Shown one piece after another: positions 632-57,398 of a stretch of DNA of 64,000 nucleotides. The notes below the pieces were generated by a model that saw only the letters and a program-made list of their open reading frames with translations, was not told the DNA's origin and searched no databases. This DNA is from a virus. Within the stretch, counting starts at the first letter, position 1. Each line of letters opens with the position of its first letter. The translations under genes and the position numbers were made by a program. The DNA lies in the IMG/VR virus record IMGVR_UViG_3300024299_000001, positions 1 through 64,000 of that record; one strand, given 5' to 3'.

Positions 632-2977
632 TTACTCCGCATATATGTTGTCGAGATAATAGTCTAAGGCAAACGAAAAAGTGTCTGAACCTTGATTGCC
701 AGAGTCTATCCCGTTCAAAGTCCAATCATTAGCATTTCCGCTTACGTCATTTCCCATATCACCAGATGCTGCAAAATCGACATGAAAACCGTTTGTGCCG
801 TATGTCCCAGAGAAAGTCTTTGGAATCAGAACACCACCCTTAGTTTCTGTAAAAGATGCTGGTGTAAGAGCGTACCCATCAATAAAATAAATATCTGCTA
901 TTGCCCCCGTCATCGGAATTAAGCCTGAGTTATATGCCCCTATACCATGAAGTGCGGCACTATTAAATCCAGGCTCTGCATTTTGAACTGGAGTTATAGA
1001 CGTAGTAAGTGCTTGATCCGCTGCGTTAACATATATTTTCATACGGTCAGCAGATGTTGCATTTGCTGAATCGTATACAAGCGTTATATGATACCATGTA
1101 CTTGTTGTATTAAAAGCATTATCCGTGGTAACATTCCCCTTTGCAACACCGCTTGAGTTCATTTCCCAGGTAAATTTGCCTGTTGTATGCCAGTAAACAT
1201 CATCGTGGTTAGTTCCATCAATAGCGTTAAAAACATCTGTTATCGTTGAAAAATCAGTGCTATATACCCACGCACTAAATGTCCATAGTTTCTGGTTTCC
1301 GCTTCCTGGGGTTTGGGTTAAATATTCATCTGTTCCATTTAAAGTACAAGTGTCCATAGTTGGGCCTGTGTCTACAACCTTCGCCTGAATCTGGTCAATA
1401 GCATCCTTATCCGCATCAGCAACCCCTGAGATATCCCACGAGTCTGTTTGGTATGTGTCTGCTGAGGTTATGTCTATTGTGTGGGTTGTGAAAGGGTCTT
1501 TATACAGTGTTGCCGATTCAGCATCTGATATTATTTTATCAAAATATCGAACTTGATCTATTTCGCCATTAAAAAAATGAGAGCCATTAAATGAGCCGAT
1601 CCGTGTATATTGACCATTTGTCCACGCAACACTTGCTTGCCCTGATATCTCAGTTTTAACTCCGTTCATTATTGTCTTTATACTGCCAGAAGAATAATCA
1701 TAAGATATAGTTACAAAATTCCATGCATCTATTGTATAATCATTTGTAGTTAATTCTGCGTATGTCGCACCCGCACCTACGATACCGGCATAACATTGTA
1801 ATTTATAATTACCAGTTGTGTTATTCATACCAATTGAAAAAGTATACGGTGGAACGTGCTCAGTTGAAATTAAAGATTCTATTTCAGCATTAGGTTTGAA
1901 CCACATTGAAATCGTAAAATCTGTAAAGGCTTGGAGAGTGGATTCTTGTGTAGTAGATGTACTACCATTAAAAACAGCACATTGATTATATACCCCATCT
2001 GTGTATGTAATGTCTGTAGGAGTAGCATCGTTATTGCCACTTTCATCTGTTGCATCATTATTAAATAAATATAGGGCTTTACAAGAACTATCAGAAAATA
2101 TGTCAAGTGTTGTTTCATCTGAGTACTCATTCCTGATATTAAACTCCAAATTACTACCAGTGCCAGTTGACCGGGCATCGAGCTTGATTGTGTTCTTGCC
2201 TGTGAGATCGAGAATATCCCCGCCTGTTAAGGTCTTGGTAACTGTTTCGTTAAGGCTGTCTGTTGTCGCTGAGAGTTTAAGTGCGTAATCGCCTTGGGTT
2301 TTTATTGTGGATTCGGAGAATGAGTTTAGGGCTGTGGTTTGGAGTTCTATGTGTCTAACCCCTTGAAATTGGACACCTCCATAATTATCAGCAAACTTAA
2401 ATGCGTAATATCTATAAGCTGTTGAATTTGTAAAAGTTATGTACTTTGGATCAGCTACGTTGGATGCTGTATGTTGGTCAAAAGTAGATTGCGAAAGTCC
2501 GGTAATTTGAGTCCAGTTAGTGTCTGTGGCATATGTTAATTCAGCAAAAGCTGCCGCATTATCTGATCCCCATAAAGTAAAATTCTGGACACCGTTTGTC
2601 GTGCTGTTGCCGGAATCGTGACTATTTTCATAATAAACTCTATTAATTATTTTGCTTGACCCTAAATCAATATGGAATCTCTGATTTGTTATCTCGTCAT
2701 CACTCAACCAGTTTGTATCAGTATCGCTCCCAGTTAAAGATGCAGTAGGGTCTGTCGCAGCCCACGGTGGTGTAGCAGCACTATTATAGGTTGTAGCTTT
2801 AACATAAGTAGTGCTTTGTGCAGTAGGAAACTGCCCCGTATAAGCCGTTGCAGACGTAACATAAGCACTCTGAGCAGCACCGTCTGTGGCGTACTCCATG
2901 TAGTCTATTTCGAGGGCAGCAGGACTTGAACCTCTGATAAAGGCAAGAACTCTTTTATGAGCTAATTGAATAGTCAT
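632..2977 (-). CDS. Distal receptor-binding tip A: discoidin (F5/8 type C)-like domain plus two LamG/concanavalin-like lectin domains
   Basis: The long ORF starts at MTIQLAHK (ATG rc 2977..2975). That is 1 nt after the upstream TAA, with GGAGG inside the upstream C-terminus. The WLSDDEITNQRFHIDLGSSKIINRVYYEN...FTLWGSDN pattern is discoidin-like. FTISMWFKPN and WTFSAWVYSTD blocks are LamG-like. Confidence 0.8.
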   Translation of the reverse strand: MTIQLAHKRVLAFIRGSSPAALEIDYMEYATDGAAQSAYVTSATAYTGQFPTAQSTTYVKATTYNSAATPPWAATDPTASLTGSDTDTNWLSDDEITNQRFHIDLGSSKIINRVYYENSHDSGNSTTNGVQNFTLWGSDNAAAFAELTYATDTNWTQITGLSQSTFDQHTASNVADPKYITFTNSTAYRYYAFKFADNYGGVQFQGVRHIELQTTALNSFSESTIKTQGDYALKLSATTDSLNETVTKTLTGGDILDLTGKNTIKLDARSTGTGSNLEFNIRNEYSDETTLDIFSDSSCKALYLFNNDATDESGNNDATPTDITYTDGVYNQCAVFNGSTSTTQESTLQAFTDFTISMWFKPNAEIESLISTEHVPPYTFSIGMNNTTGNYKLQCYAGIVGAGATYAELTTNDYTIDAWNFVTISYDYSSGSIKTIMNGVKTEISGQASVAWTNGQYTRIGSFNGSHFFNGEIDQVRYFDKIISDAESATLYKDPFTTHTIDITSADTYQTDSWDISGVADADKDAIDQIQAKVVDTGPTMDTCTLNGTDEYLTQTPGSGNQKLWTFSAWVYSTDFSTITDVFNAIDGTNHDDVYWHTTGKFTWEMNSSGVAKGNVTTDNAFNTTSTWYHITLVYDSANATSADRMKIYVNAADQALTTSITPVQNAEPGFNSAALHGIGAYNSGLIPMTGAIADIYFIDGYALTPASFTETKGGVLIPKTFSGTYGTNGFHVDFAASGDMGNDVSGNANDWTLNGIDSGNQGSDTFSFALDYYLDNIYAE

Positions 2978-3300
2978 GTTAAACCTCCGGTGTCCAACCA
3001 TTAGTTGTGATAAGCCAATCGTCTGCTGTGTAGTATTGAAAGACCGCTATATCTCCAGCGGTTGACAAGTTCGTAAGGTTCTTACCTTCAGCGTTTGTTG
3101 TGCCGTCCATTAGATAACCATCATTGGCATTTGTATCTACGATAACCTCTATTGCTCCGAGTGTTATAATGGTGAAGTTCATTCCTGCTACCATTAGCGG
3201 GAGTTGACAAGTGCCGGTTACGTTGCAAATGAACGTACCACCGTAAAGATTAGCTCCGGTAAAGTTTGCTGCGAAATTTGCTGCTGAGTCTGTAACCGGA
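2955..3300. repeat. Conserved arm 1, copy A (partner about 58473..58818); spans the fibre C-terminus, the gene junction and the tip N-terminus
   Basis: By-eye alignment. The encoded 109-aa fibre C-termini differ at only 2 residues (I/V, N/A). Confidence 0.85.
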
Positions 3301-4298
3301 GTAAGACTTGGTAAAGCTCCCGCACTTGTAAGTCCTGTTAATGATGTAATGTCACTATTAGCACCATCTGAAGCAGCATTGGCAACTTTGGCCAAGGGTA
3401 TACCATCGTTGTCAAGACCTGTCATTGAGGTGATGCTAGAGTTAACTGGACTTATACTTGCCACTGCAGCGTCTGCTAATACTACATCTGCGTTAGTTGT
3501 TACTACATCTGCGTTAGTTAGTACTACATCTGCTGCTGTATCTATAGCGTCTTGTGCTGTAGTTGCTGCGTCTGCGGCAGTATCTATGGCGTCTTGTGTC
3601 GTTGTCACTACATCTGCATTTGTTGATACTACATCTGCGTTAGTCAGTACAACATCAGCATTTGTTAGAACTAAATCTGCTGCTGTCGCGATTTCATCAA
3701 GTGCTGTTGCAGCAGCGTCTGCTGTAGTTGTTACTACGTCTGCATTCGTTAGTACAACATCAGCGTTAGTTGATACTACATCAGCATTTGTTGACACCAC
3801 GTCTGCAGCTGTTGCAGTTGCATCTGCGTCAGTTAGTATCTCATCTGCTGCAGCCGCAGCTGCAGACACAGCAGCAGCAGCAGCAGATGCAGCAGCAGCA
3901 GTAGTATATGAAGATACGCTACTCATGAGTATAAACTGAGTATTGGCTAAATCATAGCTCAACATAGCTAAACCAGCTGCAGGTAAGTCACCAGCAGCTA
4001 AAGCTGTACCGTCTGGTTGAACAATTGACTTAACACCAATAGAATCTATATTTATAGTACTAGCACCAGTATTTGCGTCTGTAACACGCATCAAGACGGG
4101 CAAACCATCTGTGTATGAAGTAATTGTATTTGTCATTGCCAGAGTATACGCATCAGCTGCACCGCCAGTATCTACGATTCCATAGTTCTCAAACTTAGCA
4201 GCAAGGCCAAACAATTCTGTCATATCGGCTTGTAATCTTGTTATGAGAATCGTTCCCATAGTGTCTGATGTTGCATAAGTATCTTGTGACACACTCAT
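2979..4298 (-). CDS. Tail fibre A (proximal or shaft protein) with Ala-run and heptad tandem repeats
   Basis: 439-aa ORF with RBS GGAG. It has a poly-Ala tract, a TNADVV(S/L/T) repeat array, and a C-terminal 109 aa shared with the ORF at 58498..59352. Confidence 0.8.
   Translation of the reverse strand: MSVSQDTYATSDTMGTILITRLQADMTELFGLAAKFENYGIVDTGGAADAYTLAMTNTITSYTDGLPVLMRVTDANTGASTINIDSIGVKSIVQPDGTALAAGDLPAAGLAMLSYDLANTQFILMSSVSSYTTAAAASAAAAAVSAAAAAADEILTDADATATAADVVSTNADVVSTNADVVLTNADVVTTTADAAATALDEIATAADLVLTNADVVLTNADVVSTNADVVTTTQDAIDTAADAATTAQDAIDTAADVVLTNADVVTTNADVVLADAAVASISPVNSSITSMTGLDNDGIPLAKVANAASDGANSDITSLTGLTSAGALPSLTPVTDSAANFAANFTGANLYGGTFICNVTGTCQLPLMVAGMNFTIITLGAIEVIVDTNANDGYLMDGTTNAEGKNLTNLSTAGDIAVFQYYTADDWLITTNGWTPEV
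3459..3848. repeat. In-frame 21-bp (7-aa) tandem repeat array inside tail fibre A
   Basis: Repeated units actacatctgcgttagttgtt and variants encode TNADVVS/TNADVVL/TNADVVT, interspersed with DAIDTAAD units. This is about aa 151-280 of the ORF. Confidence 0.85.
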
Positions 4299-9207: not shown

Positions 9208-9840
9208 TTATGAATATTTATCTTTATACTCCACAACTTTGTGTAGTAGATCTTCGTTTGACTCTATTGTACCTAGTAAAGTATTACATCTAGGACACAG
9301 TAACCCTCTAACCTTATTTGTATCATGGTCATGATCTATGGATGCTCTAGTAGATAACTCACTGAAATCTTTACTGCAAATTTCACAGCAGCCTTTTTGT
9401 TGATTCATCATATCTTGAAAATCAACTTCAGTTAAGCCATAACTTGTTTTAATACTAGCCATACGAAAATAATGATCACGTTGTTTACGTTCAGCATTAT
9501 TTTTTGCACCAGTAGGGTTATACTGTTTTCGTCGTAAGTGCTCACAAGTTTTACAGTTAACCATTAAACCATTTTTATCTCGGTTGTCAACTCCGAATAA
9601 TTTAACTGATAAAGTTTGTTTACACGACGGACAATACTTTTTACCTTGTTTAAGCTGCTGAACGCGTCGATTAGTTTCTTCGACACTTTTCTTGCCTTTA
9701 CCATTTGCCCAGCATTTTTTATTTGACTTACTTGCACATTGTCTACAGTATGATTTTAAACCGTCTTTACTTCGCGCTTGTTTGTTAAACTCAGTAATAC
9801 TTTTTTCTACTTTACATCCACTACACGTTTTAGTCTTCAT
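9208..9840 (-). CDS. Endonuclease VII-family HNH nuclease with repeated zinc-ribbon modules (free-standing, homing-endonuclease-like)
   Basis: SIDHDHDTNKVRGLLCPRCNTLLG matches the DHDH..RGLLC..CN..LG signature. Two upstream CxxC...F...DG...C..C modules are present. The likely start is MKTKTCSGC (ATG rc 9840..9838) rather than the ORF-track start at 9945. Confidence 0.8.
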   Translation of the reverse strand: MKTKTCSGCKVEKSITEFNKQARSKDGLKSYCRQCASKSNKKCWANGKGKKSVEETNRRVQQLKQGKKYCPSCKQTLSVKLFGVDNRDKNGLMVNCKTCEHLRRKQYNPTGAKNNAERKQRDHYFRMASIKTSYGLTEVDFQDMMNQQKGCCEICSKDFSELSTRASIDHDHDTNKVRGLLCPRCNTLLGTIESNEDLLHKVVEYKDKYS

Positions 9841-9956
9841 TTTACTAGCCCTCGCTATTTCCTGTAAAATAAATACGAGGGAAAGAATGTAGGTTGCATC
9901 CCTTTTCGACTTGCATTGTCTATCCCTCATAACTGTATAATTCATATCAGTTTTCC

Positions 9957-13311: not shown

Positions 13312-14766
13312 TTACATTACCATTCTTCGTTGTTTATATTTCGCCATCAGTGCGTCTACTTCATTCAGGCGTTCCTTTGTATAGCCAGAAAGGCCCCTGA
13401 TACGCATCATCACATACTGAAGAGCATCGTGGACATGACTGTACTTATTCTTGGCAGGCGTATCTGCAAATCTCTCTTCACCAACAACCTGCAGTCTTCT
13501 AAACTTATAGCCTCCATTAAATCCCTTTCTCAAATGGTTGCAGTCAGGATGTAAGTTGAATGCAGGCTTGCCGTCCCTGAGTGCAGTAAGATAGAATCGT
13601 ACTGCTTCAAGACGTGGATCTAGCACATTGGTATTTGCTTCTTCACACATGATACCTAAGTCGGCTAGTTCTTTAAAAACTGTTTGTTCGTCTGTTTGTG
13701 CACGTTGATTGCCGGCTGGGTCACCGATGAATGAGATATCTGTGTCGGGGTAGTGCTGCTGAATATGTGGCAGTAAGCAGGTCTCAGCAAACTGCTTAAT
13801 ACCCATGTCAAAGGAGACTACTTCAGACAGCACATTCACACCGCCACGTGTTGTTGGTTGTACAAATACTGCAGAGGGAGTTAAGCCAAAGTCAAGGCCG
13901 CACAGTAATTCCTGATCCTCAACATGCACGATATGTTCATTTAGATGAAGGGCTTCTGACCACTGTTCTTTGTAAATCGGCCTTCCATCTTCAACACTCC
14001 CGAATTGATTTGCTAGGTTGACCTTTATCCAACTGTGTGTCTTACCTTCTTTTCCTCTAGTGTAGTATCCCTCAGGTAAGTTTTGTATGTTCTCAGCCAA
14101 AGGATTGGATTCCCATTCTCTAGTTACGGGGTTCTCTATTAACCCACCAGGTTGTGTAAAAAAGGTCCAGTCCCTTGGCTTGGTAACTTCTTGCAGTTCG
14201 TAAAGCCAGTGATCATCATCCACTTGATTGGTGTCACCGATTATCCCGTACCATGACGGCCCGCCATCAATAGCTGACGGATATCTGCCGATACGAAAGT
14301 CGAGCATATCCAGGATAGCTTTCGGTAATTCTTTTATTTCGTTGAGCCAGGCCCCAGTCAACTGTGATCCCCTCACCTTCTTGACAGCTTGCGGTCTGTC
14401 AAGAGCTATGAAGACTAGGTCTGAGTCAACGATGGTCTTATCTGATAGTTTAAATTTTATATGGTGGTTGGGTGGTTGAATACCAGACCCTTTAGAAAAC
14501 TTCCCTAGATGCTCGAATAAGTCAAGCCAATCCTTGATCGTAGTAGAGAAGAGTTCTCCATATGTGTTCCTGACAGCGTACCATCTACTTTTGCGTATGC
14601 CTTGCCGGTTTGGTCGCTGCTCAGTCATCTGTGTCAAGATGCGTTCACAAGAGCCATAAGTTTTGCCGCTACCTAATGGCCCTGTGATAATACCAACACG
14701 CCCTCGATGATGAATGTAGTCACCGAGTACCTGCCCTTGCGCCTTGGTTTTCATCACAAACTTCAT
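13312..14766 (-). CDS. terL: Terminase large subunit
   Basis: Walker A is GPLGSGKT and the Walker-B-like block is LTGAWLNE. The C-terminal nuclease-type acidic blocks are GLDFG, IGDPAG and HVHDAL. Confidence 0.9.
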   Translation of the reverse strand: MKFVMKTKAQGQVLGDYIHHRGRVGIITGPLGSGKTYGSCERILTQMTEQRPNRQGIRKSRWYAVRNTYGELFSTTIKDWLDLFEHLGKFSKGSGIQPPNHHIKFKLSDKTIVDSDLVFIALDRPQAVKKVRGSQLTGAWLNEIKELPKAILDMLDFRIGRYPSAIDGGPSWYGIIGDTNQVDDDHWLYELQEVTKPRDWTFFTQPGGLIENPVTREWESNPLAENIQNLPEGYYTRGKEGKTHSWIKVNLANQFGSVEDGRPIYKEQWSEALHLNEHIVHVEDQELLCGLDFGLTPSAVFVQPTTRGGVNVLSEVVSFDMGIKQFAETCLLPHIQQHYPDTDISFIGDPAGNQRAQTDEQTVFKELADLGIMCEEANTNVLDPRLEAVRFYLTALRDGKPAFNLHPDCNHLRKGFNGGYKFRRLQVVGEERFADTPAKNKYSHVHDALQYVMMRIRGLSGYTKERLNEVDALMAKYKQRRMVM

Positions 14767-14769
14767 ATC

Positions 14770-15279
14770 TTAAACTCCACTCAAGTCTCGGATGATCACA
14801 GTGGGGAGCCCAGACTCATCTTTGCCCATCGAAATTGCACTGTTGAGTCCCTGAATGTCCTTGGTCAGCGCTTGAAACACGCCAGAGAGTGTGGCAATAT
14901 CTCTAACACTCTCTTCATCGACTGCCTCAATCGCACTGCGAGCTTTTGCCAGTAACTTAGTTTCTAAGTCAGCATATAATTCGACAAGTGCGAGTTGCTT
15001 GGCCATGTTAAACACTTGAAGTCTTTTTCGGTTTTTATCCAGGAATTGATCTGCGCGAACGGTAAAGATATCTTCACCCTCTAAAAGCTCTTCACCCTCT
15101 GTACCTTCAACCAGAGAGAAGGAGGACGAATCGTCTTCTGAAAACCACTGCTGCCATTCTTGTTCTTTGGCAATCTTCTCCATCATAGAGAGAGGTAAAC
15201 CTAGAGTATCTGCAAGATCTTTAAGAGGGACGCCTAGAATCTCGTAAGATAATCTAGGTACTTTCATATTGGTTTCCAT
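14770..15279 (-). CDS. Putative terminase small subunit (N-terminal HTH-like)
   Basis: 169 aa, the first gene of the late arm directly upstream of terL, with RBS AAGGAG. Function comes from position. Confidence 0.5.
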   Translation of the reverse strand: METNMKVPRLSYEILGVPLKDLADTLGLPLSMMEKIAKEQEWQQWFSEDDSSSFSLVEGTEGEELLEGEDIFTVRADQFLDKNRKRLQVFNMAKQLALVELYADLETKLLAKARSAIEAVDEESVRDIATLSGVFQALTKDIQGLNSAISMGKDESGLPTVIIRDLSGV

Positions 15280-15368
15280 ATCAGCTCCTTTTACTTTCTT
15301 ATTTAATTATAAGCTATATATTTGGATTTGTACAGCTTTATTTGAAAATAAAATACAGTAATACCACT

Positions 15369-15757
15369 CGTGGGAAAAGTGTATCATACCATATTATATA
15401 GGCGAATTTTTTCTACAGTTTTGATCTTTTTTAGTATAAGCACATCAGTTTGGCAGAGCAATACACGTATTATAGTATTTTAGTATCGGGGTTATACTTG
15501 TGTAAAAAGTGTATATTTTAGTAAAAACAGAGAAATTTTTTTGTTTAGTTTCTCGGTGTTATACTTGTGTAAAAAGTGTATATTTTAGTAAAAACAGAGA
15601 AATTTTTTTGTTGGGATTCACAGAAGAGTGGTGTAAAAAGTGTATATTTCACTGTGTACGAGAAATTTTTTTGTTGGGATTCACAGAAGAGTGGTGTAAA
15701 AAGTGTATATTCTATTGTTTACGAGAAATTTTTTTGTCGGGATTTACATAAGCAGAG
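15369..15757. repeat. Tandem array of 63-67-bp units (4 good copies plus 1 degenerate) with core GTGTAAAAAGTGTATAT ... GAGAAATTTTTTTGT
   Basis: Cores lie at 15500, 15567, 15631 and 15694, with a degenerate copy at 15372. The array is in the divergent intergenic region. Confidence 0.85.
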
Positions 15758-15786
15758 CTTATTAACCCACGGGCCCCCTATACCCC

Positions 15787-15950
15787 ATATTATATATTTA
15801 TTTTATTTTAAAATATTTTTAAATAAATATTATATTATATATTAAATTTTATTAAAAATATATAAAAATTTATTTAATTTTTTTATTTACAAATTTATTT
15901 TTTTATTATATAATATATATATTAAATAAATAATAATTATTTATTTAATA
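15787..15950. other. 164-nt tract composed of A/T apart from a single C (candidate DNA unwinding element or UP region)
   Basis: Direct reading: only C15890 interrupts the A/T run. Confidence 0.8.
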
Positions 15951-15955
15951 GATCT

Positions 15956-15984
15956 TTGACATAATATAAAAGCTTTTATATGAG
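15956..15984 (+). promoter_or_regulatory. Candidate early promoter: perfect -35 TTGACA, 17-nt spacer, weak -10 TATGAG
   Basis: TTGACA lies at 15956..15961, immediately after the AT tract. The -10 lacks the final T. Confidence 0.3.
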
Positions 15985-16116
15985 AAGGCTAGAAGACTTC
16001 ACTCTTCTGTAAGAAGAGCGCGAGACTGAATAGCCTGCTTATAAGAAGAGTGTATAACTGTGAGACTCTGATACTGAAGAGTCTCACTCGATGGCCTAAG
16101 CACAAGGAGACTTACT

Positions 16117-16302
16117 ATGAAATCACTAAACTTTGAAACTAACGAAGCTTATATCGCATGTGATTTTGAAGAAACATTCGACAGAACACACTTCAACGAA
16201 TACTTGAAGAATACTGAGATACATGATATGACTGAGTATCTCGAAACTCTTGTACCAGTGTACAGAGCATCGCACACTGACTTTGTTAAACGCCCGTACT
16301 AA
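16117..16302 (+). CDS. Early hypothetical protein (acidic)
   Basis: 61 aa with RBS AAGGAG. It is the first ORF of the plus arm. Confidence 0.55.
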   Translation: MKSLNFETNEAYIACDFEETFDRTHFNEYLKNTEIHDMTEYLETLVPVYRASHTDFVKRPY

Positions 16303-16381
16303 TCAACACAAACATCCGAACAGCGCTCGGGCGATGTAAAACTAAGCGCGTTTACAACACTCAACTTATAAGGAGTACATC

Positions 16382-16708
16382 ATGGCCAAAGCAAAAGAAC
16401 AAAGCGTACAGTTGACTAACACTACAGAGCTGAAAAGCTGGACCAAACCTGAACTTGTAACTGCAGTAATTGAGTATGAAGACTTGCTCCTTGCACTTGA
16501 GAGTAAAATCTCAAGTGTGAAGGTGCCTGTAACAGGGCGCAAAGAACAAGTACTGAAAATCTTGAAGTCAGCTGGACACATAAGCGTCTCAGCTATTGCG
16601 ACGCGCATTGGCATCAGCCAACGCAATGTGTCTTCGCAGATGACATACCTCCGCAAGGACGGTCATGCAATCGCGACCGACTCGCTCGGTCGTAAATTTC
16701 TTGAGTAA
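16382..16708 (+). CDS. Winged-helix DNA-binding protein, paralog 1 (SSQMTYLRKDG family)
   Basis: 108 aa with RBS AAGGAG. The C-terminal 55 aa are near-identical in pattern to the 18233..18562 product. Confidence 0.7.
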   Translation: MAKAKEQSVQLTNTTELKSWTKPELVTAVIEYEDLLLALESKISSVKVPVTGRKEQVLKILKSAGHISVSAIATRIGISQRNVSSQMTYLRKDGHAIATDSLGRKFLE

Positions 16709-16734
16709 TTAACTGATGTCTTCTAGCCTTCTAT

Positions 16735-16786
16735 ATGCGCTGCTCAATAACGAGCAGCGCAACCCTTAACAAGGAGAATGACTATG
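16735..16786 (+). promoter_or_regulatory. Intergenic module copy 1: 9-bp GC hairpin (GCGCTGCTC-aataac-GAGCAGCGC) plus AACCCTTAACAAGGAG RBS plus start
   Basis: This is a nearly identical 52-nt block found three times. The hairpin lies at 16737..16760. Confidence 0.8.
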
Positions 16787-16999
16787 GCTATTGTTTATGT
16801 AGTAATGCTTGACGTAAAGTATGAAGGTTCAACACTCAGAAATTTGTTTAGCAATGAAAACGCAGCACGCAAGTACTGCGCGGCTAATGCCAACGACGTC
16901 GAGTATGATGACGTGAGCTTCTCAATTCACGAGATGACTGTGATTGACGAAGTAAATGTTACCGAGGCTGATGACAAGTATGATCATTACGACTACTAA
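16784..16999 (+). CDS. Early hypothetical protein (acidic C-terminus)
   Basis: I chose the second ATG of ATGACTATG as the start, because the first is only 1 nt from the RBS. Confidence 0.55.
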   Translation: MAIVYVVMLDVKYEGSTLRNLFSNENAARKYCAANANDVEYDDVSFSIHEMTVIDEVNVTEADDKYDHYDY

Positions 17000-17006
17000 C
17001 CTTAAC

Positions 17007-17058
17007 ATGCGCTGCTCAATAACGAGCAGCGCAACCCTTAACAAGGAGGATGATTATG
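17007..17058 (+). promoter_or_regulatory. Intergenic hairpin+RBS module copy 2
   Basis: The hairpin lies at 17009..17032 and has the same sequence as copy 1. Confidence 0.8.
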
Positions 17059-17241
17059 ACTAACCCTAACCGATCTAAAGTTCTCAATGCTGTTCAAACA
17101 TCAATCAAATCAAACGGTTATTACCGTAATGATATGATTGCCAAACAACTCGGTATCCCTAAGCGTGAGGTAAGCAAGATGCTTACTTACCTTAGATGCG
17201 ATAACGGCCACGACTTCACGCGGTATAGAATGAACCGCTAA
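17056..17241 (+). CDS. Short winged-helix-like protein, divergent paralog (KMLTYLRCDNG)
   Basis: 61 aa. The pattern IAKQLGIPKREVSKMLTYLR parallels IATRIGISQRNVSSQMTYLR. Confidence 0.5.
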   Translation: MTNPNRSKVLNAVQTSIKSNGYYRNDMIAKQLGIPKREVSKMLTYLRCDNGHDFTRYRMNR

Positions 17242-17249
17242 CCTTTAAC

Positions 17250-17301
17250 ATGCGCTGCTCAATAACGAGCAGCGCAACCCTTAACAAGGAGAATGACTAT
17301 G
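17250..17301 (+). promoter_or_regulatory. Intergenic hairpin+RBS module copy 3
   Basis: The hairpin lies at 17252..17275. Confidence 0.8.
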
Positions 17302-17490
17302 TCTAAACGTGTTAACATTTCAATGCCTGAAGAATTATATGCAGACGTTAAGAAATATAATCTTAATACTTCTAAAGTATGTCAAAAAGCTTTAGAGACT
17401 GCAATACGATTTGAGAAAGGTAAACGCCGACACCGTCAAAGCATGATTGATAATGCTCATCACATTATCAAAGCTTTACAGCGTGCTTAA
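17299..17490 (+). CDS. Ribbon-helix-helix (CopG/Arc-like) small DNA-binding protein
   Basis: KRVNISMPEELYADVKKY..NTSKVCQKALE fits the RHH strand-helix-helix pattern. Confidence 0.45.
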   Translation: MSKRVNISMPEELYADVKKYNLNTSKVCQKALETAIRFEKGKRRHRQSMIDNAHHIIKALQRA

Positions 17491-17573
17491 AACTCAATGC
17501 CTTAACCATCCGACGCGTCTGGGTGATGTAAAACTTGGCGCACTAACTCTAACCCTTAACAAGGAGGATGATT

Positions 17574-17915
17574 ATGACTGAAACATTATTTACATGTATG
17601 ACACTGGCTGAAGCATTAACTAAAGAAGCTGACGCAGTAAGAAAAACTGAAGACGACATGATGTCTTATGTCGAATGTTACAACGGCCTCGAGCGTATAC
17701 ACCACGATCTGTATACACATGCTGAACTCGATGATCTTAGCGAGACGCTTGAAGCGAACGGCACATGTGACATAAGCATGGACCTTGTACGAATAATGAA
17801 CATATGTCTTGACGGCTTCGGTAAATCTGACGTAGCAAATACACTACGACTACCGATTAGCAACAAGATAATGCAACTCGTACACTTTCTTCATTATCTG
17901 CACAACATGAGTTAA
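17574..17915 (+). CDS. Early hypothetical protein
   Basis: 113 aa. It is preceded by the RBS half of the module (AACCCTTAACAAGGAGG) without the hairpin. Confidence 0.55.
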   Translation: MTETLFTCMTLAEALTKEADAVRKTEDDMMSYVECYNGLERIHHDLYTHAELDDLSETLEANGTCDISMDLVRIMNICLDGFGKSDVANTLRLPISNKIMQLVHFLHYLHNMS

Positions 17916-18120: not shown

Positions 18121-18170
18121 CACACCAATTGCACCCGGCTATTTACTTCCCCGTGCTTTGGTGATATAAT
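18121..18170 (+). promoter_or_regulatory. Sigma70-type promoter cassette P1: TTTACT-17 nt-TGaTATAAT with upstream CACCAATT box
   Basis: The -35 is at 18142-47 and the -10 at 18165-70, with extended TG at 18162-63. Confidence 0.8.
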
Positions 18171-18232: not shown

Positions 18233-18562
18233 ATGGCCAAAGAATTGATGAGTATGACCAAAGAAGAATTGGTGGCAATGATTGAAGCACAGTCAGTAGA
18301 GATCAACAAAGTGAAGGATGCAGCTGGTGGCCGGAAACTTCAGGTATTGAAGATACTTCAGACTGGAGACCACACCACAGTGAAAGCCATCGCTGCAAGA
18401 ATCGGTATCTCAGACAGGAATGTCTCATCTCAAATGACGTACCTCCGCAAGGACGGATATGCCATCGCAACAGACAGTCTTGGCCGGAAGTTTCTTGAAT
18501 CCACAGGTCAGGTGCATGAATCAGCTGGAGCCAAGGTTATAACCAGAAAGAAAGCAGTATAA
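18233..18562 (+). CDS. Winged-helix DNA-binding protein, paralog 2
   Basis: 109 aa with RBS AAGGAGG. It contains VKAIAARIGISDRNVSSQMTYLRKDGYAIATDSLGRKFLE. Confidence 0.7.
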   Translation: MAKELMSMTKEELVAMIEAQSVEINKVKDAAGGRKLQVLKILQTGDHTTVKAIAARIGISDRNVSSQMTYLRKDGYAIATDSLGRKFLESTGQVHESAGAKVITRKKAV

Positions 18563-18953: not shown

Positions 18954-18957
18954 CAGT

Positions 18958-18996
18958 AATGCCCGGGCATCTCAATGTGTCCGGGCATTTTTATTT
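18958..18996 (+). terminator. Rho-independent terminator
   Basis: AATGCCCGG ... CCGGGCATT is a 9-bp stem followed by TTTTATTT. Confidence 0.75.
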
Positions 18997-19050
18997 ACTA
19001 TCATCGGCGGGACTGGAGAGCTCGACCAAATAAGATCTGGATTCTAGAAA

Positions 19051-19068
19051 AATGAGCGACCGCTCATT
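19051..19068. promoter_or_regulatory. 18-bp palindrome AATGAGCG-ac-CGCTCATT (operator-like)
   Basis: Perfect 8-bp arms. GCTCAT half-sites recur at about 19370 and about 19627. Confidence 0.5.
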
Positions 19069-19386
19069 GTGGCTACTTCATAGCTACATTTGCTCTAAGC
19101 TACTGATTTTACTACATATAACCAGAGGTAAAATCGAGCTAAATTTAGGTCTTTTTATATTCTATTAACTCTTTTTATCTAACTACTTGTTTTTATTATA
19201 TATATTAATAAAATTGAAAGAATTAAGAGAAATATAATATAATAGAAATACAAGGTTGTAAAAGACCTGGGGTTATTGTATATATAGGCTACGGTGTATG
19301 TATTATTGATCCTTTTTACCCTTCTGTAGCTTAAAAGGATAGAAAAGTTTTTATTGAAATTAGCTCATGCTCTTCAAAAAAGGACA

Positions 19387-19600
19387 GAATATCTAATAAA
19401 ATCAGCTACTTAGAAAATAAGAGTCATTTTAAGCAAAATGAGAATACCTAGTTATATCAGCTACTTAGAGACAAAGAATTACCGCGAGGCTCTTTGTAGA
19501 CTACGCACTTTTTGAGAGAATACCTAATAAAATCAATAGCTTAGGCCCATTTTCTCGAAATATACACGAAATAAATTATCTAATAATATCAGCTACTTAA
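19387..19600. repeat. Four direct, imperfect 27-bp repeats (GAATAYCTAATAAAATCAGCTACTTAG) separated by 28, 49 and 29 nt; one inverted partial copy at 19095..19111
   Basis: Copies lie at 19387, 19442, 19518 and 19574. They sit inside an 820-bp non-coding region. Confidence 0.8.
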
Positions 19601-19673
19601 GTTTGAGCCGTCATTCATTTTTTATTAGCTCATTTAACCTGAAATATTAACCCACAAACACACAAAGTGCGCT

Positions 19674-19724
19674 CAACACCAATTATCTCTGGCTATTTAC
19701 TTTCCAGCTCTTTGGTGATATAAT
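19674..19724 (+). promoter_or_regulatory. Sigma70-type promoter cassette P2
   Basis: The -35 TTTACT is at 19696-701, the spacer is 17 nt, and TGaTATAAT places the -10 at 19719-24. A CACCAATT box lies upstream. Confidence 0.8.
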
Positions 19725-19779
19725 TATATTATAGAAGTGAGAAGGAATTAAAAATCAACACTTAAGCAAGGAGTCCCGT

Positions 19780-20713: not shown

Positions 20714-20742
20714 GAAATCTGTATTTTATTTTTCTCGGGGTA

Positions 20743-20771
20743 TTTACAAACCGGTCTTTTTATGTTATAAT
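20743..20771 (+). promoter_or_regulatory. Sigma70-type promoter P3: TTTACA-17 nt-TGtTATAAT
   Basis: The -35 is at 20743-48 and the -10 at 20766-71. Confidence 0.75.
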
Positions 20772-29524: not shown

Positions 29525-29556
29525 AATTTAACCACGAATATACACTTTTTACGCTT

Positions 29557-29606
29557 AGCACCAATTAATTCCAGCTATTTACTTCTTGGTGTTTTGGTGA
29601 TATAAT
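29557..29606 (+). promoter_or_regulatory. Sigma70-type promoter cassette P6
   Basis: The -35 TTTACT is at 29578-83, the spacer is 17 nt, and TGaTATAAT places the -10 at 29601-06. A CACCAATT box lies upstream. Confidence 0.8.
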
Positions 29607-41693: not shown

Positions 41694-41963
41694 TTACCTC
41701 AGTACCATCAAAACTAGATTTGGTGTACCAGCAGACGCTTTAGCGTAAAATATAGTCTCACCTTTAGCTTGTGCTATATCTATATTAAAAGTTTGATTTG
41801 CTAAAGTTAAGCCATTTACTGTACCTGCTGTAGTATCAGATATATAAAATGCTGTTCCGTCGTCTACCCAAAAACTAATTGACCCGCAGCTTTGTGAAGC
41901 ACCTAGCGATATAGCAGTGTAGGTACTTGTGTTTAGCGCTGTTACGACCAGAGGTTGAATCAT
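41694..41963 (-). CDS. Small beta-rich structural protein
   Basis: 89 aa. Its ATG overlaps the stop of the giant gene. Confidence 0.5.
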   Translation of the reverse strand: MIQPLVVTALNTSTYTAISLGASQSCGSISFWVDDGTAFYISDTTAGTVNGLTLANQTFNIDIAQAKGETIFYAKASAGTPNLVLMVLR

Positions 41964-44900
41964 AATGTACTCCTTTGTTTTTCGTACTTGTTTGGTTTAA
42001 AAGTTTGCTTCAAATTTCTATTTAGCCATTTGCCAGTTATATAAGGTATCAAGAGCTTGGGCTTAGAAGTATACACTGCATTGTTGTATGCACGTATCTT
42101 GTCTGCTAAGTCCATTAATATTTCTGGGTCTTGCTTATATAGTGGCAAAGTGTAAAATCTGTTGTAGCGTCGTAGTATGTCAGACCGGTCTGCAGTGTAC
42201 TCTCTACGTTCTTGCGTCTCTGACCATTGACGGTCACGGATAGCCGAGAGTCTTGACGGACTGAATGAGAAGAGTCTGAGTATAACTTCATACGGTGTGC
42301 TCTTCAGTGGTGTCGTACCGTGATACACAGGTGCATATGAACCAGTAGTAAGTCCTTCAGTAAACTCTCGTTTACCCTTGATGATATTACCCAGTGCTCT
42401 AGGTGCTAAGTCCTCAAGTCCTTTCTCAGTTTCACCAAATGTGAAGTGCTCGTACGCTTTGGCAAAGTCTGACCATATGGCAAGTGGTGCACCACCAATC
42501 TCTATGACCTTCTTAGGAAATGGACTATTCATCTGGAGTGATCCAGTCATGTCTATTCCAGTTGTTGCACCAATTAAACCTGTACGAGCTATAGTATCTG
42601 ATCCAGTTAAGTCTTCAATAAATTGGTAGAACCTTTCTTCTGGGTCTTCGTGTCCTGGCCACATAGCTTTGATAAGTGTAGTTAACATAGTAGCTGGTAC
42701 TCCAGCCAATAGAGCTGGCGCCATCAGCATATACAGTGGCGCAATAATCTGTTTCTTGTTAAGTCCAAGGTCAAGCATGTTCAGTATGTAGTTGTGCTGA
42801 AACTTCATAAATGTAAAGGGCAAGTCAAGTAGTCGTATCTTCTGGATAACCCAAGGCTTGGCTGCTTTACCATATGTACCATGAGCTTGACTTGATATTT
42901 CTTTGGCATGCTGCAGCAGTTCTTTATGCGCTTTCTCAATCAGCTTGGGGTCTTTAGAAGAGTTCAAGGTAGTGTTAATTCTCTTATACATCTCCTTATC
43001 AGACTGTCTTAGAGCTTTATAAGCAGCAAATATAGTTGTAGCACGATTCACCTTCTCAGTTGCTCCAAACATGACCATAGCGTGTTTTAGAATCTCATTA
43101 AAGACTCTAGAACCTATACCTTGTATTACACGAGCAGCCTCATAGTTGAAATTTGCTTCATCCCAGCCTTGACTTGTTATGTAGTCAAATATCGCCTTAT
43201 CTTCAGCTGATAACGTGCCTGAACCAACCAGACTATGTATACCTAGTTTCTTAGATAAGCCAGCTCTGTATTTTGTATACTGAGTAACACTGTTTGCTAC
43301 ATGCTTTCCAGACTGTGCAAGATTTAAGCCAGTGTAACCAGTAATTGTAGCAGGTACAGCAAGTACCATATTTGTCAAGTTGACTGCTGCTGAACTTACA
43401 CGACCACCTAAGTACATGACGACTGCTAAAGCTTTGAAGTAACCAACAGCTCTGTCAAACCCTGTATCAGGCTTTAAGAAGAACTGCATGTATAAACGTG
43501 TTGCTTTATATAATCCTTTCTGGGTAGTAGGATCAATTGCTTTTTTCTTTACTTCAGTCAAGTAGTCCGTGTACGTGCCTTTCTTGTTAGTCTTCTGCCA
43601 GTCTTTAAATGACGTTTCACGACCTGTAAAAGCTAGGAGCATGTTACGTGTTGTTGTACGACGTGCTTCACCAGCAGCAAGTCGCTGTGCGTAACTTGTA
43701 AAAGCTTTATTCATGTCAGTCTCGAAGCCAGCGTAGTATCTTTTAGATCGCTGTTTACGTGATGTCAGTCTACCTTTTATCTTATACACGTCTGCAATGT
43801 TCTGCGCCATTTGATTGTGTATAGACTGCAGTACTTTAGTATCAGCGTCTTTCTTAACATTTTCTTCTGCGTTCTTAAGTAACGAGTCCATAGATGTTAT
43901 GAGCCCAGGAACATCAAAGATCACATCAGTAGGTGTAGGAGTTACTTTTATACTTACGTCATAACCGAGTGCTTTAAGACGTCTTGCTTCCACACCAACT
44001 GGCATTCTTGTATTAATCAACTGACGTGTCTTATTTACCCAAGGAGAAGACAATACGTTCTGTGGCAGATACCCTGAGTAAGTCTTTGTCACTAACTTAC
44101 CGTTTGAGTGCTCCGCTTTTAGAACATAGGCTTTACTCTGTCGTTCTCTAGGAAAGTAAGTACCTCGTAAGTCGCCTATCCTTGTTATTAACTGGCTAAT
44201 GGCGAGCTGCCGTGTTTTGCCTTTGTCATCTGTATATTGTGCTGTAGGAGCTTTAAGTCCATTCTCTTTGGCACTTGCAACTTGGCGTCTTAGCTCTTCT
44301 GTTAGTAGTGTAAAGCCTCGGTCAGTCAACAAACGTGCTTCTTTCACCATGTCCAGAGATGCTTGATTGAACTTGCGTTTCTTGAGCATCTGCTGCTCGA
44401 ATGATATCATCTTGCGTGTGGCTTCTTCTTCAGTCTTAGCTCTTCCAACAACTTTGTTAGATGGGTTCATCACTAGCCATGTAGTCTTCACCACTTTAGC
44501 GTTCTCAGTCTTTGTCACTGTGCTCTTAGTCTTTACTGAATATCCTCTACCTGTTGCATCTGTCTGCAGTAAGTAGTCATTAGCAATCTTGTAAGCTTTC
44601 TTGTAGCCACTAGTCTTCTTAAGATTCTTAATCAAGTTAGTCCAGTTACCGAGCACGAACTTCTCAATAGTATATTTAAGGTTATCTTCTCGTAATGCAT
44701 GACTCATAACCTTCTTGGCTTGTGCACCACGTCTCAAGTAATACTCAGGAGAGTTAAACAGTAAGCCCATGATACCGATGTTCTGCTCATGTGCTTTCCT
44801 TGTGAAGCCGTCACTTTCATCAAGCTTGTCAGATTCGTCAATCACGTTGTTGAATAGCTTAGCAATCTTAGCACGTAAAGGCACTTTAGAGGTTTCTTGA

Positions 44901-47900
44901 TCTTTCATCACGTCTCTAAAGAGCTTCTCTGCCTCTGCCTTATTGTCACCCAATATCTCGCCATCTAGTTTAGCTTGTTCAGCTTTAGTACGCACCTTAG
45001 CTGCGAGTGGTACTTTATCAGCAGATACGGTGTCGATAAGCTCTTGATTAAACTCAAACGAATTAAATTCTTTACCTGCTTTTGCGTAGTCTTTTATCTT
45101 GGTTGTAGTTAACTTACCACCGCCATATGGTTTAAATAACTTAGTAATAGTTTGTGGAAGATACTCTGTGTACTTCTTTACTATACCATCAACTATTTGA
45201 ATACCTTCAGTTGAGTCATATATCCATTTACCATCAGCATCTTGTCTAAAATTACTAGGCCAACCTTCTATAGCTGCTACATGATAAGGAGTCTTTGCCC
45301 AGATAAGTTTTGTGTGTCCTAGTGCTACGGCTTCCATAACCGCTCGTTTAAGAGCTAACTGAGTAGAATTGTCTTTAAATGGAAGATCGGGCTGTGCTCT
45401 AAGACTTTTTTTAGCTAAGAATGCTGGTTCTATAAGTTTTTCCATAACTTTTGAATCACGAATTATACTTTCTACGTCTTGTACAGAGATAGATTTACGT
45501 ACGTCTCTAGACAATCCACGTATTATATTAATCGCTAAATCTTCTGCGTCTACGTAAATAGCGGGACTATATGGACCAAAAGGACCAAAGAAACGTCCTT
45601 CCACGTGTATTTTAAAGTTTCTTTTTACGTCTTTATCATCTAAGTTTTTCTTCGTTATAGGAATAGTATCGTGCATCTTATTGACTATATAGTTTACATA
45701 ATGTTTAACTTTGGCATTTCCAGGTTCAGTTAACTGCCTTAGTTTAAGCGTATTTTTATCATATGTTTTTTTATCAGTATACCCGTACTTCTTTGCGTCT
45801 TGATGAGTATCAGACTGAATCTCGTGTATATATAATCCGTCACCTATAGAAGATACACGTAAATGTACTACTTCATTTTCTAACCTAAAGTGTTTACCTT
45901 TTTTACTAAGTTCAGTGTCTTTTATAGCTGGAATTTGTATAATTATCTCTTGGTAGTCTTTTAAACCTGTGGCTGTTGGTAAAGTAACATAGTCAGCTTC
46001 AACAGGCGCATTTCTATAAGCATCGCTAAATAAGGCGTCTTGTACCTCAGTTAAGTAACCTTGATCTTGTACAGCGTCTCGAATAATTCGCCAGTCTTCT
46101 ACTAAGTCTTCGTCAGCAAGTAAAAAGTCTTTGCTTTGTTTACTCATTAAGTCAGAGCTAATTGGAGCTAAACTATCTCTAAGAGAATTACTGTCTAAAG
46201 ATGTGTCGTTTAAAACATTAATTAAAAGATGATCCCGTACTTCAGGATATACACCTAAATTGTCTAACTTATCACGAATTATGTCTCTGAATACTATATA
46301 CTTATCATCCACAGCTACAATTAGTGTAGCAAAAGTATAAGACTCGCCTTTATTAAAATCACCATTTATATCTGGATACTCAGTTTCATTAATAGGCTTT
46401 GTTAAAAGTTCATTAACTCTATTAACAGCAGGTCCCGAAAACCCACTAGCTCGTTCAGCTATATAGTCTTCTGGATTTATACCTTCTTCATGTAACTGAT
46501 CAAATAGTGTTATATCGCGACCACCTAGTACAGTCTCATCCATTCTTGCTTTTAGGCCGTACTTAGCTAAGTGGTCCATAACTTGCTGCTTAGTAACTTT
46601 GCCTTTCTGTTTCTGCATCCACTCACGTAAATTAGAAAAGAAGAACTCTTCTTTTACATGAATCGGCATAGACTTGTTTGTCCAAGACTTAAATGTGTTA
46701 AGCCAGTTTTCAGGAGTCGCTTTACCTGGACCCTTAGCTTGTATGAAGTCGTCTTCAAGTCGTGAAGAAAACTTAGGTGCCAACTTAGAAGCTTTAGGTT
46801 TCGTTGGCGGTTTTAAAGGCAGTATATCAGCGTTCTTTCTGTCTTTGGCTTTCTCTAGTACGGTAATATTTCCAGGTGTTGTCATACCACCCTGAGGCTT
46901 AGCTTTATAACCACCAAAAGCGTCATCATATACTTTTGCAAAAGCTATCATGCCAGAAGTTAAAAAATCATATCGTTGTTCTAACTCAGCTTTTAACTTC
47001 GTGTACTCCCTAAATTTAAAAATACCTATTTCAGCTGTTAAAGCTTGCTTAGCATTCCATATTTTCTTTCTAGCTTGTACGTCAGTATCTTCAGCTTTTA
47101 TACCTGTTGCAGCGTCCCAAATTTTAAAAACTTCAGGTCGCATAGCATAATAAACTCGATCAGCTACTTCTACAGGAGTAATTGCAATTCTGTCGTTTAC
47201 CGACGTTTTATCGTAAGCCGACTTTGCAGGGAATTTTATTATTTTAGAAGCTAAGGGAATATCATTACGTTTTTTAACTACAGTTTGATTTAGTATTTTT
47301 TGATCCCATATAACGTAGTTAAAAGTTTTTCTTTCGTATCTTTTATACCGCGTCCAACCATCAATGAAACGTAAACCTGGAATACCAAATTTTTTAAACT
47401 CTAATGACGCAGCTTTATCTGATCCAAGCGCTTTAGATACGGCTCTGTATATATAACTACCTAGAGTATTATTATTTATACGCCGCATGTGAAGCTTGTT
47501 TTTGTATGGCACACTGTTTTTTCTTTGTACACTGTTAATAAGCTTGTGCATCTTTGCTCGTGCCATTGGTTTTTGTTGACCTAATGTTCTATCCCAATGA
47601 AAAAGTTGACTTATAGCAGGCGAAGGCATTTCTAACTTATACAAAGACGCGTCTTTATTAGTTGAGCGCGTAAAGTTTATCTTAGCTTGTTTAAGTTTCC
47701 AAGCATTTATAAGATGCCCTGCTTGATCATATAAAGGCAGTAGCCGTGCATTTTCAAAAGATGCTTGATCACGACGTAAGGCTTCAAGTTCAATATCTAA
47801 ATACCACAAAGCATCTTCATATATTTCTTGTGTGTCGTGTATATGTGTAGTACCATTAAATGCAAATCCTACATATGCAAGTGCTATATCTTCAGCAGTA

Positions 47901-56627: not shown

Positions 56628-57398
56628 TCATACTGTCATCCTTAAAATTCTTATTTCATCATATTTGGAATAAGGTGGTTTATCTCCATATTTCCAAACA
56701 AAAGTTTCCACCTGTGGATCGTACATCCATAGATCCATGTTGTCATCAAGGATATGAGTGATTGCGTGTTTAATTATATCCTGCCCTTCATACCTTAATA
56801 TTACATCAGACCTTTTGCCAAAGACCAGATTGCCGTAGTTCCACCTTGACAACCATCCAGTTGTTTCATTAACAAAGTCATCGCAGTCGTGGGATTCTTC
56901 AATATATAATCGTCTGTCTGCTGGATTAGCAACGCAAACAGGTTTAATCATCTCTGGTTTAATTAACCTGAAAATCATATCATCTTCGTAAATATCAAAG
57001 GGATGAATACCTGTGAGTGTTCTTATCTTTTGCCTTGCTTCATAAACTGATATTTCTCTCATTTCACCAAGATCAGGTACAGGAGGATTTAAAATGTCTG
57101 CATACCCTTGAGTATTGAACATTGACCAATCACCGTCCAACCATCCGACAAGATTTGGCCCTGTTACTATTCCCATTGGATTAAGAATTACAGAGATTAA
57201 AAGATTTGGATCAAGCAATGGATTAGGGCATATTTCTTTTGCACAAATAGCAACTATTTGGAGTTGAATACTATTAGGAATACCAAAACAATTTTGAGTA
57301 TCAGCATACAATCGTTTAGATCCATTGTAATTATAGTACCCACCGTCTTCAAGATAGTTTTTAATTGTCTTTACCATTGCTTGTTTTATTGTTGTCAT
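56628..57398 (-). CDS. Cassette-associated 256-aa protein with Cys..His..Asp arrangement (possible papain-like fold)
   Basis: It is a paralog of 1..573. It contains ESHDCDDFVNETTGW, KHAITHIL and MYDPQ. The start may be the MVKTIK Met at 57377. Confidence 0.7.
   Translation of the reverse strand: MTTIKQAMVKTIKNYLEDGGYYNYNGSKRLYADTQNCFGIPNSIQLQIVAICAKEICPNPLLDPNLLISVILNPMGIVTGPNLVGWLDGDWSMFNTQGYADILNPPVPDLGEMREISVYEARQKIRTLTGIHPFDIYEDDMIFRLIKPEMIKPVCVANPADRRLYIEESHDCDDFVNETTGWLSRWNYGNLVFGKRSDVILRYEGQDIIKHAITHILDDNMDLWMYDPQVETFVWKYGDKPPYSKYDEIRILRMTV
56802..57101. repeat. Conserved arm 2, copy B
   Basis: Partner of 1..300. Confidence 0.85.

Follow-up and report, generated by a model that had tools for sequence, protein, structure and literature searches.

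The window analysed here is a 64,000-nt stretch of the IMG/VR virus record IMGVR_UViG_3300024299_000001 (positions 1 to 64,000). Its minus-strand late arm contains a terS-like gene, TerL (13312–14766), portal, endonuclease VII and a major capsid protein of the N4 gp56 family, and a plus-strand arm departs from 16117. The 837-bp non-coding region between the two arms harbors a tandem repeat array (Table 1). At the far end of the window, a minus-strand ORF (59375–63988; the feature runs to 64000) encodes the C-terminal ~1,500 residues of an N4-type virion RNA polymerase (PHROG 2206, E = 7e-226) and matches residues 3052–3444 of the solved N4 vRNAP chains, the polymerase domain itself not being seen within the window. 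Since this ORF runs past the window end, the genome must exceed 64 kb. TerL shares about 50% identity with the proteins of BcepC6B, KL4 and Pseudoalteromonas phage Y3, of which BcepC6B is a member of the epsilon15 group (PMC4819975), and the replication genes are T7-like. The combination of an N4-type vRNAP, a BcepC6B/epsilon15-type TerL and T7-like replication genes indicates a mosaic phage with an N4-like two-arm layout. With coliphage N4 (Schitoviridae) it shares the virion RNA polymerase gene and a late arm that starts at the terminase genes and diverges from the rightward arm. By comparison, the TerL type, the T7-like replication module and the lack of RNAPII genes among the ORFs tested set it apart from N4, which in turn has no tandem array in its gp69/gp70 divergent region or at its left end. 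Searches for DNA similarity to cultured phages returned nothing for the array region or its flanks, and no close cultured relative was found; a leftward extension of the window met contigs that end there.

Several other features of the window were recorded. A giant 3,275-aa ORF (41960–51787, minus strand) has no Pfam, PHROG or PDB sequence match. The endonuclease VII gene (9208–9945, minus strand), with zinc-ribbon-like repeats, is inserted between the scaffold-like and major capsid genes and is missing from the relative L106. In the tail-fibre region, the segments 1–401 and 56802–57202 are duplicates with 91% identity, and a 789-aa Laminin_G_3 protein (632–3001) occurs in two other contigs only, which suggests a variable host-recognition module. 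In the early arm, successive small ORFs are preceded by a 68-bp repeat (16723–16790, 16995–17062 and 17238–17305, with a partial copy at 17551–17579). Within it, a hairpin whose stem measures 9 bp (GCGCTGCTC-AATAAC-GAGCAGCGC) comes ahead of a ribosome-binding region and start codon that are identical from copy to copy.

The array itself comprises four tandem units (15496–15757) offset by 67, 64 and 63 bp. Tandem Repeats Finder describes it as 3.9 copies with a period of 63 (15500–15752; 86% matches, score 286) and, over 15486–15612, as 1.9 copies with a period of 67 (98% matches). A repeat finder located two cores in every unit, box A (GTGTAAAAAGTGTATAT; spacing 130, 67, 64 and 63 bp when counted from a degenerate copy at 15370) and box B (GAGAAATTTTTTTGT; spacing 67, 63 and 63 bp), both of which match exactly in all four units, with 17 and 15 identical nucleotides. 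The two programs thereby confirm the original prediction of four to five units of about 65 bp with 67/64/63-bp phasing, and the gene positions confirm the predicted location between terS of the late arm and the early arm. Read toward terS, each unit presents an A-tract box (AAAAAAATTTCTC), 14–15 nt of free sequence and a core box (ATACACTTTTTACAC) with the half-site TACAC. The composite AAAAATTTCYC-N12-17-ATACAC, in minus-strand reading, occurs four times in the window against 0.00 in shuffles, and the full combination of box B and box A is confined to the array within the window. Units 1 and 2 are 94–98% identical and units 3 and 4 are 94% identical; the two pairs have only the boxes and part of the right flank in common, whereas the 12–13-nt spacer between box A and box B differs. 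The degenerate box A lies 130 bp (2 x 65) ahead of unit 1, its centre is ~78 nt upstream of the point where terS transcription is predicted to begin, and the intervening segment 15431–15495 looks like a decayed unit and includes an inverted ATACAC at 15461–15466.

Table 1. Features of the array region and of related sites in the window
Feature	Coordinates	Strand	Description
terS-like gene	14770–15279	−	169 aa; N-terminal helix-turn-helix, acidic linker, long helices, C-terminal GLPTVIIRDLSG tail
Predicted terS/late-operon promoter	15306–15358	−	CTGTATTTTATTTT-N10-TGTACA-N17-TATAAT
Degenerate promoter-proximal unit	15366–15430	−	box A-like GTGGGAAAAGTGTAT at 15370–15384; weak box B-like GGCGAATTTTTTCTA at ~15401–15415
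Unit 1 composite site	15500–15544	−	box A 15500–15516; box B 15530–15544
Unit 2 composite site	15567–15611	−	box A 15567–15583; box B 15597–15611
Unit 3 composite site	15631–15674	−	box A 15631–15647; box B 15660–15674
Unit 4 composite site	15694–15737	−	box A 15694–15710; box B 15723–15737; minus strand AAAAATTTCTC-N14-ATACAC
G/C-rich motif	15766–15786		CCCACGGGCCCCCTATACCCC; border of array and AT tract; also in L119, L124 and partly L130
AT tract	15787–15950		164 nt, A/T throughout save one C; holds the first plus-arm promoter
Predicted near-consensus sigma70-type promoter	15884–15914	+	TATTTACA-N17-TATAAT, into the plus-strand arm
Early winged-helix protein	16382–16708	+	108 aa; coiled-coil and winged-helix; favoured candidate box A binder
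Winged-helix paralog	18233–18562	+	109 aa; 67% identical, recognition helix the same
Isolated box A	29540–29556	+	ATACACTTTTTACGC, one mismatch in 15 nt; also given as ATATACACTTTTTACGC

On the side facing the early arm, the array is bordered by the G/C-rich motif, which reads GGGG-TA-GGGGGCCC-TGGG on the terS-forward strand (also at 1195–1214 in L119 and ~31–52 in L124), and then by the AT tract. The latter is made of two A/T-only runs of 103 nt (15787–15889) and 60 nt (15891–15950) separated by one C; no other A/T-only run in the window exceeds 26 nt. The adjoining AT tract of the original prediction is therefore exceptional in the window, but it is missing in L117, which keeps the array. 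The predicted promoter inside the tract is the first of six TATTTACA-N17-TATAAT promoters, all on the plus strand (0.01 expected).

Two promoter families were observed in the window. Family 1, CACCAATT-N9-GCTATTTACW-N17-TATAAT, has four plus-strand copies at 18140, 19694, 23320 and 29576. Family 2, CTGTATTTTATTTT-N10-T(G/T)TACA-N17-TATAAT, comprises the minus-strand terS promoter (15358–15306) and the plus-strand primase-helicase promoter (20719–20771), in which the CTGTATTTTATTTT element has the same spacing; this element is kept before terS in relatives. The CTGTAT element is conserved ahead of terS in relatives and is palindromic in L130. A further motif, AGAAGAG(T/C)G, occurs on the plus strand in the array spacers (15622 and 15685) and again between the early promoter and the first early ORF (16012 and 16044 on the plus strand, 16000–16008 on the minus strand), where CTCTTCT-GTA-AGAAGAG forms a 7-bp stem with a 3-nt loop. 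At the matching place L119 carries GTTAGAAGA twice. This motif may mark a virion RNA polymerase promoter or some other binding site.

Conservation of the composite unit in related phages

Diverged relatives were reached via the capsid protein, terS and the winged-helix protein, and the regions upstream of terS were compared in eight lineages, the window plus seven whose terS is 31–58% identical to that of the window (L108/L119 52%, L117 45%, L122 52%, L124 58%, L125/L126 48%, L127 53% and L130 31%). All seven relatives carry one to six units upstream of terS, with identical box order and orientation, and their composite reads AAAAA(A)TT(T)CYC, 12–17 nt and ATACAC toward terS. There are three copies with a period of 74/69 in L119, three units of 74 bp plus a degenerate proximal one in L124, at least three units of 65 bp in L125, two to four units of 61–71 bp in L117 and six units of 43–80 bp in L130, whereas L122 and L127 show one clear unit each before the contig ends. 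The spacers are unrelated among lineages and the period ranges over 58–80 bp, so the original suggestion of a phasing of about six helical turns is weakened: the phasing is not kept in the relatives. In five lineages (the window, L119, L122, L124 and L127), a unit is found at a distance of ~105–165 nt from the start codon of terS.

The A-tract/TTYC block and ATACAC(TTT) have the highest information content, and the positions separating them have little. What follows the core differs from lineage to lineage. A second direct TACAC is found in the window, L125 and L127, giving TACAC-N4-TACAC with repeats 9 bp apart in the window; L119 and L124 have AGAAC or AGAGC; L130 has an inverted GTGTA, which creates the 13-bp palindrome TACAC-AAA-GTGTA; and in L117 the inverted arm is 12 nt off (ATACACTT-N12-AAGTGTAT). 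The half-site symmetry expected for a dimeric helix-turn-helix or ribbon-helix-helix protein is thus present as the L130 palindrome, the L117 inverted arms and the direct TACAC repeats of the window.

Since the boxes are kept while spacers and period vary freely, selection acts on the boxes. The homogeneity of the units within one phage, described above for the two pairs in the window, would also be expected of a neutral minisatellite, that is, a recent slippage duplication without function. This explanation is contradicted by the conservation of boxes, spacing and orientation in eight lineages with unrelated spacers, and we regard it as extremely improbable. The same pattern implies that the units are selected binding-site modules, beyond recent duplication alone, and the comparison supports the view of the array as a conserved cis-element composed of such modules.

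Wider searches did not extend this set. In IMG/VR, exact box A gave single chance matches only, and the composite pattern gave the known relative L108 and chance matches only. A genome collection scan found nothing, and the two closest matches of a metagenome scan with the TerL profile (64% and 74% identity) come without the upstream region. Among distant TerL relatives (Y3, BcepC6B, Rollin and L001), no array was seen upstream of terS, and the gene order is different. Assemblies in ENA, JGI and Logan contain further copies of this phage, which are 100% identical over 20 kb and therefore uninformative on conservation; one Logan contig stops inside unit 1. Contigs of several lineages (L017, L121–L129) likewise stop 70–500 bp upstream of terS, most simply because the tandem units break assemblies. 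At its end (1–43), the L122 contig carries TAAGCCCC five times, immediately upstream of the one composite unit it has, and L130 has an unrelated ~33-bp tandem repeat of three to four copies, CTAATACTATAAATCCCAATTTCTATATTATT, between array and terS promoter (3190–3330, minus-strand reading). The longest contig listed in the terS protein cluster is 131,274 bp.

Candidate binding proteins and a proposed platform upstream of the late promoter

Single copies of box A are found away from terS as well. The isolated copy at 29540, the single extra site in the window, lies in a 127-bp intergenic region past a terminator hairpin, 36 nt upstream of and co-oriented with the promoter motif 29576–29606 of the DNA-polymerase operon, and a related ACACACAAAGTGCGCT is located upstream of promoter 19694 at an equal distance. 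In L130, the exact 18-mer TATACACAAAGTGTACGA is found at 5699 and 6019, in the non-coding region following the second winged-helix paralog, and no further copy exists outside the array in the 7.7 kb. The motif is thus present at other promoter or regulatory regions in both phages, from which we infer that box A behaves like an operator.

The seven exact copies of ATACACTTTT in the window all point along the local direction of transcription, which could also mean that each unit is itself a promoter, firing toward terS and used either by an RNA polymerase of the phage or by a modified host polymerase; the phage does have the C-terminal part of an N4-type virion RNA polymerase. This tandem-promoter explanation is very unlikely, given that no sigma70 spacing fits and that the motif is missing from the other late-arm intergenic regions. 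Consistent with the original statement that no good sigma70 promoter fits inside the units, a sigma70 consensus scan of 15000–16400 stayed at chance level (7 sites against 6.8 expected), with no −35/−10 pair at 16–18 nt in each unit; the only match within the units, weak and in unit 1, is a minus-strand TTTACA-18-TAAAAT. A sigma70 promoter array was accordingly rejected. N4-type promoters require a hairpin with a 5–7 bp stem and a 3-nt loop (PMC3715699). Promoters of this kind were rejected as well, as the window repeats are direct rather than inverted, folding is not significant (z = −0.98 for DNA and −2.31 for RNA) and a hairpin can be formed in L130 only. A structured RNA was discarded too, with no Rfam match at E <= 1 and no conserved helices on folding.

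Going outward from the array, a winged-helix gene comes first in L119 and in L130, and second in the window. These are the three of eight lineages in which this adjacency is checkable; the other five contigs end before that side. Among these three, the C-terminal domain is ~80% identical and the recognition helix, RNVSSQ(M/L)TYLR(K/R)DG, is almost invariant. The ATACAC core and this helix are both near-invariant, which we count in favour of a winged-helix binder. Distant winged-helix relatives (38–51% identity, 23 loci) have no ATACAC arrays. The ribbon-helix-helix protein encoded at 17293–17490, or terS itself, could be the binder instead.

Taking these observations together, we tentatively favour the array as a platform on which a phage DNA-binding protein assembles cooperatively to control the late promoter, the winged-helix protein being the probable binder. 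The early sequence-specific protein, most likely the winged-helix protein together with its paralog, would fill the cores cooperatively, and the A-tract bends would promote a higher-order complex upstream of the promoter of terS and the late operon, which in turn would set the timing or level of late transcription. The same protein may also occupy the single box A sites before middle promoters. The identity of the binder and the transcriptional output are inferences, and the effect may be activation or repression. The original prediction had offered three options, a replication origin, a packaging-initiation or terminal region and an array of protein-binding sites; of these, the last fits best with the conserved boxes, the single box A elsewhere and the adjacent winged-helix gene, while the other two retain the lower probabilities given below.

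In the window, the strong units lie ~200 to 400 nt upstream of where terS transcription is predicted to start, and in L130 they lie further away; the distance from the nearest full unit to terS also varies between phages. Such placement is unusual for an activator contacting RNA polymerase directly. This geometry would therefore suit a structural nucleoprotein complex better than a simple activator. Furthermore, the array is clear of the early promoter in the window, L119, L124 and L130, so direct repression of the early promoter is not evident.

The proposed regulatory platform resembles the switch region of phi29, where p4 sites lie between the divergent A2c/A2b and A3 promoters. Common to both are several regulator-site copies, A-tract curvature and a position in the early/late non-coding region, binding being a prediction in the present case. 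In phi29, one p4 site is centred ~80 nt upstream of the late start, compared with ~78 nt for the degenerate box A here, and by analogy the proximal unit would act like p4 at A3. The two systems differ in that phi29 shows no sequence or protein homology to the array phage and p4 is not a winged-helix protein. Moreover, phi29 has four sites in ~220 bp that overlap the early promoters, whereas the array phages have four to six composite units of 58–80 bp, mostly far upstream of the late promoter and clear of the early one.

Genome packaging and replication as alternative roles

The position of the array also invites a packaging role. As a cosB- or pac-like site, the composite units would be bound by a terS oligomer, the A-tracts would bend the DNA and TerL would cut nearby, for example at the G/C motif. 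Packaging would then proceed across terS and along the late arm, so that the plus-strand arm would go in last and come out first at injection, and the array could lie in or beside a terminal repeat. An upstream location with fixed orientation relative to terS, as seen in all eight lineages, is what a cos or pac site would show. In addition, the order AT tract, G/C motif, array and terS is common to the window, L119, L124 and L130 (G/C motif and AT tract partly in L130), paralleling the order cosN-cosB-Nu1 of lambda. The comparison with lambda cosB (R3-I1-R2-R1) and SPP1 pacL/pacR extends to repeated sites and bending between a candidate cleavage site and terS, oriented terS-ward; by contrast, the present units are more numerous and longer, and their core motif is also found singly at promoters elsewhere. 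A variable distance to the terS promoter poses no problem for packaging. Furthermore, defined ends and injection of the early arm first would be required of a phage that carries an N4-type virion RNA polymerase, so packaging should start on the terS side.

A structure model of the terS-like protein itself (mean pLDDT 64) starts with a generic helix-turn-helix, predicted with confidence, and continues with an acidic linker and long helices to strands at the C-terminal end. Searches of Pfam, PDB and Foldseek gave no match and no similarity to Nu1 or G1P was detectable, so the terS name rests on position, architecture and the C-terminal tail; a search of cultured phages gave no protein homologs of terS or of the winged-helix protein. 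The helix-turn-helix and its near-invariant first helix, LSYEILN, are compatible with DNA binding by terS in the packaging scheme. Its predicted third helix, however, varies among the same phages in which the ATACAC core does not, and a comparison of box variants with this helix revealed no pattern of co-variation across the few lineages.

Other observations also weigh against packaging. Box A is not specific to the terS region, being found singly at promoter regions far from it (window 29540; L130 5699 and 6019). L117 has the array but neither G/C motif nor AT tract, its divergent genes beginning ~80 bp past the array. In N4, which is without such an array, the physical ends lie 1.2 kb beyond the divergent gp69/gp70 region by the terminase genes. 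Assemblies read straight through the region, and contigs break within the repeats, as repeats alone would cause. The literature on the termini of phages with this TerL type provided nothing usable. On balance, we consider a cosB/pac-like site rather unlikely.

An iteron-type origin would account for other aspects of the locus. Here an initiator, possibly the winged-helix protein, would bind the repeats and wrap the DNA, and the AT tract would melt, helped by transcription from its internal promoter. Three or more direct repeats lie beside an AT-rich element in the window, L119, L124 and L130, the element being the exceptional 164-nt tract in the window, and the winged-helix gene is next door. 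Iteron initiators, among them lambda O and the Rep proteins of plasmids, belong to the winged-helix class, and the T7 origin, of interest given the T7-like replication module, has a promoter beside an AT-rich sequence. The array thus shares one-orientation direct repeats, an adjacent AT-rich tract and a neighbouring winged-helix gene with ori-lambda (O protein) and iteron plasmids (winged-helix Rep). On the other hand, the 58–80 bp period is three times longer than, and far exceeds, the ~20–24 bp of classical iterons, the AT tract is dispensable in L117, whose array lacks any such tract, and the array is tied to terS in every lineage.

A second region looks at least as origin-like and is closer to the replication genes, just upstream of the primase-helicase operon. 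This ~830-bp non-coding region (18954–19779) contains a terminator hairpin, an AT-rich segment (19140–19260), repeats and then a promoter; the repeats are four 31-nt copies of AGAATAYCTAATAAAATCAGCTACTTAG at 19383–19600 (spacing 55, 76 and 56). It is a candidate origin or second control region, and the analogous region of L130 has CCTATAAATG repeats flanked by box A palindromes. An origin within the array is accordingly improbable in our assessment.

A control-region array in uncultured marine podoviruses

Judged from its sequence, the array belongs among phage control-region repeat arrays and is conserved in an uncultured clade. The analysis identifies, in a clade of uncultured marine podoviruses, a conserved cis-element whose tandem units have a long period and combine an A-tract with a TACAC core, and it names a candidate partner protein. 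Neither terS nor the regulator of this clade has a cultured relative. The finding opens no long-standing question by itself. It probably explains the assembly breaks a few hundred bp upstream of terS, offers the motif as a practical marker for the clade and yields three testable hypotheses on the early/late control region of a mosaic virion-RNA-polymerase phage.

The regulatory and packaging roles may also be combined. In a dual-purpose platform, which we likewise hold to be improbable, the early winged-helix protein would assemble on the units, switch the late promoter on and mark the start of packaging for terS/TerL, with the G/C motif as the cut site or the border of a terminal repeat. If true, late transcription, genome ends and the direction of DNA entry would be coupled via one element.
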